A stretch of 34,584 nt of DNA, taken from a virus. Taxonomy: Duplodnaviria > Heunggongvirae > Uroviricota > Caudoviricetes. The notes beneath the pieces are model-generated. The model saw only the letters and a program-made list of their open reading frames with translations, was not told the origin of the DNA and ran no database searches. Every line of letters begins with the position of its first letter. Position 1 is the first letter of the stretch. The stretch lies in IMG/VR virus record IMGVR_UViG_2734482772_000010; one strand, written 5' to 3'. This document shows, one piece after another, positions 24,860-26,634 of the stretch. The translations under genes and the position numbers were made by a program.

Positions 24860-25084
24860 ATGAACAAACAACAAGTTCGAGCACGACTGGTTGAACGAGG
24901 CAGTAGCCTGCGCCAGTTTGCGCTTAACGCGGGCTATGAGCCACGAACTGTTACCCAGGCTGTTAGCCGCTGGGCAGGCAAAAGTGAACTTCCACGCGGT
25001 CGTTTGACTTATCGGATTTTGCGAGACCTTTCTGTTGCAATAGGTAAGGAAGTTACCCCCGGTATCCTCAAGGAGGCGTCATGA
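24860..25084 (+). CDS. ner: Ner-like DNA-binding protein
   Basis: ORF-track ORF 24854..25084 (GTG) with ATG at 24860; SLRQFALNAGYEPRTVTQAVSRW resembles Mu Ner/Nlp family; first gene of rightward early operon. Confidence 0.65.
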   Translation: MNKQQVRARLVERGSSLRQFALNAGYEPRTVTQAVSRWAGKSELPRGRLTYRILRDLSVAIGKEVTPGILKEAS

Positions 25085-25389
25085 GTAAACCAAATACATC
25101 AAGCTCAGGTACTCGTATTTTGCGTGTTCTTAAGGCCTTACGTGGTCACACTCTGAATGGTGTTTCTAATGGTGAATTGGCATTAGCTCTTGGTGAGTCC
25201 CCGGCGAATATCAATCGGGCACTAAATACCCTTATCGAAGAGGGACTAGCCCTAAAACTGGAGAACGGACGTTTTGCGCCAGGCATCCAGTTACTGCAGA
25301 TCGCCATGGCTCACAGTAACGAGATGGCGCGAGCACAGGATCGTATTAACGAAATCAATCAGCGAGTTATATCAGGTAGCTACCTGTAA
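25081..25389 (+). CDS. winged-helix-like DNA-binding protein, hypothetical
   Basis: 102-aa ORF, ATGA overlap with ner stop, AGGAGG RBS; ILRVLKALRGHTLNGVSNGELALALGESPANINRALNTLIEEGLA resembles IclR/MarR-type wHTH. Confidence 0.5.
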   Translation: MSKPNTSSSGTRILRVLKALRGHTLNGVSNGELALALGESPANINRALNTLIEEGLALKLENGRFAPGIQLLQIAMAHSNEMARAQDRINEINQRVISGSYL

Positions 25390-25399
25390 GGAGTGATTA

Positions 25400-26317
25400 A
25401 TGGGACGCACCAAATCACCGGTTAACACTGAACTGAACGCCGAGGTACCGCTGTCGGATGATCTCAACGTCAGCCTGAATGCCATGACACAGCATCGTAT
25501 GGAGATCATGCAGCAGTTCGGCGACGGCCTGCCCTATGAACGTGAACGCATCGTTCACGAGGCTCGATTTTATATGGACCAGAGTGCGGAGGCTATGCTG
25601 GAGGCAGGTAAGCGTTTGGTTATCCTGAAAGAAAATGAACCTCATGGAGAATACGTACAAATCGTCAAAGAACAGTTGAACCTTGAACCACGCATAGCCC
25701 AAAAAATGGCCCAAGCTGCTCTGAAGTTTTTATCTCCAGAACTGACATCAAAAGCGAAAACGTTTTCGCATTTGGGAAGATCAAAACTGTACGAATTGAT
25801 GTTAGAGGATGACGAAGATCTTGCTGAACTGGCCGACGGCGGCACAGTCGCCGGCCTGACGCTTGACGACGTTGATCGCATGTCAGTACGTGAATTGCGT
25901 CAGGCCCTGCGCGAAGCGCGCGAAACCAACGCAGCACAACAGCGCGTACTCGCCGACAAAAATGAAAAAATCGACTCACTTTCCACCAGACTGGAGAAGA
26001 AATCCCGTATTCAGCCACCCGAGCCTGATGAAGAGGTGAAGAAGCTGCGGGCGGAAGTGACGGCATTAGCGGTTGAGGCGGAATCTGCCATCGCCGTCCG
26101 GCTGTCCGGTGCCTTTGAAACCCTGTGTGAATACTGCAGTAAAAACATGATTGATACCCCCAGAAATTTCATGGCTGGTCTGGTCTGCCAGATTGAACGC
26201 AGTGCTCATGCATTGCGTGAGACGTTTGACCTTGATGCCGCACCATCGGGTAACGATGTTCCCGCCTGGCTGACCGAACCGGAGCCTGAAATCAACCGAC
26301 CGGAGGGCATGCGTTAA
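25400..26317 (+). CDS. hypothetical early protein, 305 aa (possibly DUF3102-like)
   Basis: AAGGAG RBS; helical, acidic, coiled-coil-rich; family assignment from memory only. Confidence 0.5.
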   Translation: MGRTKSPVNTELNAEVPLSDDLNVSLNAMTQHRMEIMQQFGDGLPYERERIVHEARFYMDQSAEAMLEAGKRLVILKENEPHGEYVQIVKEQLNLEPRIAQKMAQAALKFLSPELTSKAKTFSHLGRSKLYELMLEDDEDLAELADGGTVAGLTLDDVDRMSVRELRQALREARETNAAQQRVLADKNEKIDSLSTRLEKKSRIQPPEPDEEVKKLRAEVTALAVEAESAIAVRLSGAFETLCEYCSKNMIDTPRNFMAGLVCQIERSAHALRETFDLDAAPSGNDVPAWLTEPEPEINRPEGMR

Positions 26318-26634
26318 TGAACACGAATAACACACAAAATATCCTGATGGACAGCCCGGAAGCACTGGGGCACGCACTGTGTAATCTGGTACCGGAAATG
26401 GTGCAGGGTTTCCGCGTGGTGACTCCTTCCGGTGAAATCTGCGTACCCGCACAGGAGGCGCACCCGTTTGTACTGACGATGGAGGTGATGCTGATGCAGC
26501 AGATAAGACGTCTGCAGAATCAGTCAGCGTTGCGCCCGGTAGTTGCACCGCAACCGGTAAATACCGTGGTGAAAAACTGCGATGGCGAAACACTGTGCGA
26601 CTTCGCCAGAAAAATTGCCGCCAGAATCGGATAA
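26317..26634 (+). CDS. hypothetical early protein, 105 aa
   Basis: TAATG stop/start overlap with upstream gene; no family recognised. Confidence 0.45.
   Translation: MNTNNTQNILMDSPEALGHALCNLVPEMVQGFRVVTPSGEICVPAQEAHPFVLTMEVMLMQQIRRLQNQSALRPVVAPQPVNTVVKNCDGETLCDFARKIAARIG

Follow-up and report, generated by a model that had tools for sequence, protein, structure and literature searches.

A conserved winged-helix and DUF3102 gene pair, joined by an optional third gene, precedes the transposase in a BcepMu/B3-type transposable prophage

We analysed the early region of the IMG/VR virus record IMGVR_UViG_2734482772_000010 (Caudoviricetes), a stretch of 34,584 nucleotides (nt) that is referred to below as the window. 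Three open reading frames (ORFs) of 102, 305 and 105 amino acids (aa), here named ORF-A, ORF-B and ORF-C, lie in it between a Ner-like gene and a transposase gene, exactly at the coordinates given by an earlier sequence-only reading, which had taken them for a three-gene insertion. The window holds the greater part of a transposable prophage of the BcepMu/B3 type. Its structural and lysis genes occupy the minus strand up to approx. 21.7 kb and are followed by a control region and by early genes that run rightward in the order Pe - ner-like - ORF-A - ORF-B - (ORF-C) - tnpA - tnpB. This region forms the ordinary 5' portion of the early operon in prophages of that kind.

ORF-A (positions 25081–25389, plus strand) encodes a winged-helix protein with an isoelectric point (pI) of 10, ORF-B (25400–26317, plus strand) an acidic DUF3102 protein, and ORF-C (26317–26634, plus strand) a small protein that varies in presence among relatives. 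They are preceded by the gene for a Ner-like small helix-turn-helix (HTH) protein of 74 aa (24860–25084, plus strand; phrog_8503, 5e-35) and followed by tnpA (26650–28419, plus strand), coding for a B3/BcepMu-type rve DDE transposase (rve 35.8 bits, phrog_310), and tnpB (28430–29596, plus strand; start position adopted from an annotated relative), coding for a MuB-like AAA+ transposition ATPase of the ExeA type (AAA_22 3e-20, phrog_296). A CI-like repressor gene (24361–24771, minus strand; Pfam HTH_3 5.8e-12) diverges from the early genes; its 411-nt gene call was borrowed from a 99.2%-identical E. coli record. Between the two arms lies an early promoter-like site, TTGACA-16-TACAAT (24788–24815, plus strand), which agrees with the consensus at 11 of 12 positions and is a consensus match only. 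In the scanned stretch no plus-strand terminator-like match was found between ner and tnpA, and those that were found lie inside tnpA (27317) and tnpB (28476). Given the promoter-like site before ner and the lack of a terminator-like site from ner to tnpA, we read the six genes as one early operon. The translational coupling that had been proposed along it is borne out at two junctions, namely the ATGA overlap of the ner stop with the ORF-A start, read directly and with GGAGG upstream, and the TAATG overlap of the ORF-B stop with the ORF-C start. It does not extend to the ORF-A/ORF-B junction, where a 10-nt spacer with AGGAG intervenes, or to that of ORF-C and tnpA, which are 15 nt apart.

All three ORFs are real genes and not chance ORFs, since each belongs over its full length to a PHROG family (ORF-A phrog_1368, ORF-B phrog_1748, ORF-C phrog_5446) and shows low ratios of non-synonymous to synonymous substitution rates (dN/dS) against relatives: 0.03–0.05 for ORF-A, 0.10–0.21 for ORF-B and approx. 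0.2 for ORF-C. The label 'ner' is itself sub-threshold. The protein scores 17.6 bits with HTH_35 against a cut-off of 25 and 29.1 with the BcepMu gp16 family model against a cut-off of 34, and matches Mu Ner by BLASTP with E=5e-4. It is, furthermore, 100% identical to the copies in the Klebsiella phage KP12 clone record and in E. coli locus L012 (dN=0, dS=0.30–0.43), and purifying selection on this 74-aa protein is unusually strong.

Homologues of ORF-A followed by ORF-B stand directly before tnpA-tnpB in phages B3, BcepMu, phiE255, PM105, CF78a, phiSHP3 (a Stenotrophomonas phage) and Mae-JY22 (a Microcystis phage, i.e. a cyanophage). In B3, BcepMu, phiE255 and phiSHP3 the pairs are ORF14/ORF13, gp12/gp10, gp42/gp41 and orf18/orf17, respectively; they share 31–60% identity with ORF-A and 26–54% with ORF-B, and are annotated as hypothetical, as DUF3102 or as 'IclR family'. 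KS10 gp15 has been reported to be similar to BcepMu gp10 and is likewise situated upstream of its transposase (PMC2628397). The order in phiSHP3 is exactly that of the window apart from ORF-C, which is present in none of these four phages. B3, BcepMu, phiE255 and PM105 differ in that further genes, one of them annotated 'CII-like', separate ner from the winged-helix gene, and BcepMu differs by gp11, placed between the two genes of the pair. Among 80 IMG/VR loci taken with an ORF-B alignment, 75 were testable for neighbours; the winged-helix gene was directly upstream of ORF-B and tnpA downstream of it in 75/75, the gap to tnpA being 22 nt or less in 62. The window also has the early module of the B3/BcepMu type. 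An rve transposase is directly followed by the ExeA/AAA_22 ATPase, and before tnpA come a divergent CI-like repressor, a small HTH gene, the winged-helix gene and the DUF3102 gene. Its TnpA core and TnpB are 59–68% and 56–62% identical, respectively, to their counterparts in B3, BcepMu and phiE255. The ORF-A/ORF-B pair is thus conserved and linked to tnpA: every transposable phage of the B3/BcepMu type that we examined has it ahead of the transposase, and it is part of the phage lineage, not an insertion, so that of the proposed three-gene insertion only the ORF-C indel stands.

ORF-A scores above the Pfam cut-off for HTH_IclR (27.8 bits vs 22), as expected from its earlier description as winged-helix-like, and matches phrog_1368 with 4e-44. 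A profile built from ten phage homologues matches the N-terminal winged helices in the structures of TtgV (8.7e-6), KdgR, IclR and MarR. ORF-A is a stand-alone IclR/MarR-type winged helix with one C-terminal helix. The IclR effector-binding domain, C-terminal and about 170 aa long, has no Pfam match in ORF-A and cannot fit into its 102 aa; the database label 'IclR family' describes the HTH only. The protein is very strongly constrained, being 92–95% identical between relatives despite saturated synonymous sites (dS 1.3–1.8), with dS of 0.02–0.05 in the tnpA/tnpB backbones.

A second DNA-binding protein directly after Ner had suggested extra regulation of the lysis-lysogeny or transposition decision, and one explanation is indeed that ORF-A, possibly with ORF-B, acts at the repressor/ner control region as an additional regulator of transcription, governing the lysis-lysogeny decision or the early-to-middle one. 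By its fold ORF-A is a genuine DNA binder of the winged-helix class; it sits right after ner and is translationally coupled to it, and in B3, BcepMu, phiE255 and PM105 the 'CII-like' gene directly precedes and overlaps the ORF-A homologue. Against this speaks the mosaic structure of the region, which was read from pairwise identities and from sliding identity. The ner gene of Escherichia phage PhiKM is of the B3 type (71% identity to B3, 24% to the window) and its control region cannot be aligned with that of the window, yet its ORF-A is 92% identical. An operator-like k-mer search found no 12-mer common to the control regions of the window and PhiKM, i.e. no shared candidate operator, and the neighbours with which ORF-A forms a recombination block are ORF-B and tnpA, not c and ner. 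We therefore consider this explanation unlikely; of the earlier proposal, the lysis-lysogeny part is not favoured, and a role in transposition or replication is possible but unproven.

Mosaicism is as marked on the side of the transposase. Between the window and PhiKM, TnpA and TnpB are 98–100% identical and the ORF-B N-domains 73%; between BcepMu and phiE255, TnpA is 96%, TnpB 99%, and ORF-A together with the C-terminal half of ORF-B 84% identical, with ORF-B N-domains at only 36%. The BcepMu N-type recurs in PM105 (61%). The most divergent segment of ORF-B (25600–25800, plus strand; residues ~67–134, the putative helix-turn-helix part), located by sliding identity, shares 60–65% nucleotide identity with L012 and PhiKM, tnpA being 96–100% identical. 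Taken together, these identities indicate that the pair varies independently of the immunity type and, at the level of alleles, also of the transposase. Within 25600–25800 dN/dS is 0.17, compared with 0.10 in the flanks. Description of ORF-B as a demonstrated 'arms-race hotspot' was considered and rejected, as no segment and no pair had a dN/dS above 1.

The earlier guess that the 305-aa protein belongs to a domain family of unknown function was confirmed by profile search: ORF-B matches DUF3102 (PF11300) with 26.5 bits against a Pfam gathering threshold of 24.4, a marginal pass, and the same model is matched by all 140 aligned ORF-B relatives at E up to 1, with a best value of 5e-8. The acidic, helical character noted before also holds, with a pI of 4.93, a net charge of −16 and basic character only in the helix of residues 161–205. 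The full-length AlphaFold model (mean per-residue confidence, pLDDT, 78.7) consists of a disordered N-terminal tail, a helical domain at residues ~20–160, a long helical hairpin at 163–248 and a further C-terminal helix; residues 17–172 modelled alone gave a pLDDT of 89.9 and a predicted TM-score (pTM) of 0.79. The modelled N-domain shows a consistent, moderate resemblance to the HTH domain of ParB, KorB and SopB. The best Foldseek match of the full model in the Protein Data Bank (PDB) had an E-value of 0.86, and sequence searches of the PDB with ORF-B, its profile and ORF-C found nothing useful; NCBIfam, PADLOC and Rfam gave no informative matches. No Pfam match to the N-terminal ParB/Srx-like (CTP-binding) domain of ParB was found in ORF-B, and only ~45 residues, mostly disordered or in a single helix, precede its helical domain. 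In view of the missing ParB N-terminal domain and the lack of a sequence signal, we treat ORF-B as a protein that may work like ParB or KorB, not as a member of their family. All ORF-B variants share the motif G-E-F/W...LG-x-x-x-R-x-A-x-R-x-M. Among them is a third type of N-domain, seen in CF78a gp14 and in a prophage of Serratia, which fails the Pfam model but aligns over its full length (hhalign probability 97.8%).

The disordered tail of ORF-B (residues 1–7, positions 25400–25420) carries an M-[G/A]-R-x-K motif, which reads M-G-R-T-K in ORF-B itself. Its conservation, in each of the three N-domain types and in different hosts, points to a short linear motif for interaction. It should also be noted that the window has 13 distinct perfect 7+7 palindromes, 3 of which cluster in 25373–25769. 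Perfect palindromes are at chance level in the window overall, those of the cluster are not conserved in 85 related loci, and the cluster is probably due to chance.

DUF3102 proteins are also found outside transposable phages. In a Geobacillus phage-plasmid, such a protein is encoded in an early operon, between a LexA-like/XRE switch and downstream genes for ERF, DnaD and DnaB; this protein, annotated as DUF3102, aligns with ORF-B residues 44–184 (hhalign probability 97.8%). In Lactobacillus plasmids the genes adjoin a primase-domain gene or follow genes for an ATPase and a lysozyme, which may belong to a transfer region. These proteins, from the Geobacillus phage-plasmid and the Lactobacillus plasmids, are ~313–321 aa long (L102, 4962–5903; L101, 4995–5954; L103, 4920–5885). 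According to a published comparison of 47 genera of transposable (pro)phages, TnpA and TnpB are the only proteins that all of them have in common (PMC8705779). Based on both observations, we regard the family as one of early proteins of mobile elements, not specific to transposition.

This distribution bears on another explanation, in which the Tn552-type transposase strictly depends on ORF-A and ORF-B as cofactors that provide in trans the enhancer or end-synapsis function of the MuA N-terminus. The pair invariably adjoins tnpA-tnpB, and TnpA is without HTH_Tnp_Mu_1. ParB-type proteins stimulate their ATPases through N-terminal tails; the conserved basic N-tail of ORF-B recalls such tails, and TnpB is an ATPase. 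However, variation in ORF-B does not track that in TnpA or TnpB, homologues occur outside transposable elements, and Leptospira prophages with B3-related transposases have only TnpA and TnpB in common with other transposable phages, so that we hold an obligatory cofactor role to be very improbable. An equally long shot is the boldest picture that could be drawn: ORF-A and ORF-B as a CTP-independent pair in the manner of KorA/KorB that would assemble on the phage DNA, bind and bridge it, and in which the basic tail of ORF-B would contact the TnpB ATPase or the transposase and supply enhancer or synapsis function in trans for Tn552-type phage transposition, DUF3102 being a widespread 'establishment' family of phages and plasmids derived from the ParB HTH. 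A replacement of MuA domain I-alpha by ORF-A is likewise improbable: there is no sequence similarity, and the idea derives from the absence of the domain alone.

ORF-C behaves differently from the pair. Among 5,426 complete E. coli genomes, the stretch 24300–29600 is matched in 644 (~12%) and ORF-C is found in 410. KP12 lacks it, as do the E. coli loci L012 and L013, and ORF-B there abuts tnpA; it is present in PhiKM, the only phage record that contains it, and in locus L001. Among 5.8 billion proteins ORF-C occurs in only 11 clusters at 90% identity, and an exhaustive search with E-values up to 0.001 returned 27 representatives; two of these, long repeat proteins, look spurious. The true relatives have a common N-terminal domain of ~60 aa (MDSPEALGxALCxxVPDMxxGF...) and tails that vary widely in length and sequence; ORF-C has no Pfam, NCBIfam or PADLOC match. 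Homologues occupy the same slot before tnpA in related prophages of Serratia, Symbiopectobacterium, Intestinirhabdus, Entomohabitans and Klebsiella. In some relatives (L091, L092, L094 and L096, ~4888–5240; and L093) the ORF-B/tnpA junction is occupied instead by small ORFs that have no relation to ORF-C, one of them basic and 73 aa long, the other of 99 aa. The tnpA of L093 looks frameshifted. ORF-C is thus the only true indel of the three, an optional small gene at an indel-prone junction before tnpA.

A third explanation makes ORF-B an acidic decoy or adaptor, and ORF-B and/or ORF-C early host-takeover or anti-defence proteins that act on host proteins. For ORF-B it draws on the net charge, on the deep mosaic allelic lineages that sit on near-identical tnpA/tnpB backbones, and on the distant DUF3102 proteins in early or establishment regions of plasmids and phages. 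For ORF-C it draws on presence and absence, on the conserved N-domain with hypervariable tails, and on a junction that accepts other small ORFs; short accessory ORFs are known, too, from the early regions of Mu-like Pseudomonas phages (PMC4378225). The family searches, PADLOC among them, offer no match that would favour it, and ORF-B is universally kept at a fixed position under purifying selection, with no segment above a dN/dS of 1, and has an N-domain that is modelled with a DNA-binding type of fold. For the two proteins together, we judge this explanation to be rather unlikely. For ORF-C alone it is, tentatively, the one we prefer: ORF-C would be cargo that is not needed for the core cycle, and it is probably directed at the host or its defences.

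As to the pair, we infer from the folds that both ORF-A and ORF-B bind DNA. The interpretation that we favour, with a probability of roughly 0.45, is that they form a DNA-acting organiser or regulator of the transposition-replication module, with ORF-C as cargo; the explanations overlap in part, and the figures behind them need not sum to one. The pair would be produced along with the transposase as lytic growth begins and would have an accessory part, on the phage DNA, in organising or regulating that module; the long helical hairpin of ORF-B could dimerise or bridge, and its divergent segment might set site or partner specificity. It would not be an immunity-specific lysis-lysogeny switch. 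Should the pair have this role, it would constitute a mechanistic difference from the Mu paradigm; and if DUF3102 is a ParB/KorB-like DNA binder, this would offer a testable handle on the family across phages and plasmids.

As a finding of a genome scan, the locus represents the standard gene content of a known phage type and no anomaly. All three proteins are already known as phage-database families and have been annotated (as DUF3102, 'IclR family' or hypothetical) in hundreds of genomes. We found no function described for any of them in the literature; searches on the early genes of BcepMu and B3 yielded no functional study, and DUF3102 is mentioned in only three papers, each time incidentally. 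Two of the three are therefore conserved in position in related phages and none has a described function, which goes halfway towards their being conserved early genes with known roles. What is added here is the constancy of the pair in the B3/BcepMu lineage, the ParB/KorB-like looks of the DUF3102 domain, and a junction before tnpA that looks like a cargo slot.

Some observations concern the surroundings of the operon. The best E. coli match to 24300–29600 is NZ_CP061758 (99.2%), the closest phage record is PhiKM (95% identity; filed under Bcepmuvirus), and two further phage records are 87% identical. The Klebsiella record (L003; OM835952, 'Klebsiella phage KP12 clone KP12_2') is filed under Vequintavirinae, yet it is a 35-kb BcepMu-like transposable prophage and may represent a co-isolated or host-derived element. 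The GC content falls to 0.42 at 24001–25000, covering the repressor and control region, compared with 0.53–0.60 in most of the prophage. Adjoining the repressor, at 23792–24337 on the minus strand, is a 181-aa ORF whose product has a signal peptide and a lipobox (…FVLSGC); in L012 and L013 its place is taken by a 335-aa 'nucleoid-associated protein', and the position resembles another slot for cargo, which might serve superinfection exclusion.

The early operon of Mu (c / ner-A-B) resembles that of the window in its divergent repressor and Ner-like gene followed by transposase and ATPase genes, and the contrast drawn before holds true, as ner of Mu directly abuts A. The transposases differ, however. 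The window TnpA has no BLAST similarity to MuA, which carries HTH_Tnp_Mu_1, HTH_Tnp_Mu_2 and DDE_2 at E from 1e-57 to 1e-136, HTH_Tnp_Mu_1 being common to the Mu repressor; TnpA of the window and of B3 have rve and a weak HTH_8 match only, and none of these three domains. Lacking both similarity to MuA and its domains, the window TnpA makes Mu the wrong baseline, and the term 'insertion' is valid only relative to Mu. A parallel for ORF-C is found in the D3112-like group of Mu-like Pseudomonas phages, which have "regions of genomic plasticity" with short accessory ORFs in their early regions (PMC4378225). Similarly, ORF-C has ~100 codons, is present or absent at a fixed junction on near-identical backbones and is elsewhere replaced by unrelated ORFs; that phage group is a different one and its ORFs are not homologous to ORF-C. 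With a moron, ORF-C shares presence and absence between near-identical genomes, but it is translationally coupled and no promoter or terminator of its own was detected, hence it is not a classical moron. The pair would loosely resemble KorA and KorB of the IncP plasmid RK2, a small HTH protein together with an acidic protein that has a ParB-type HTH. The likeness to these and to ParB-family HTH domains is one of analogy, not membership: neither ORF-A nor ORF-B has detectable sequence similarity to KorA, KorB or ParB, and ORF-A is an IclR/MarR-type winged helix and not a KorA homologue. ORF-B, for its part, differs from ParB and KorB in having no CTPase domain and no operator or parS-like site found, and in a C-terminal region of another kind, built on the helical hairpin.

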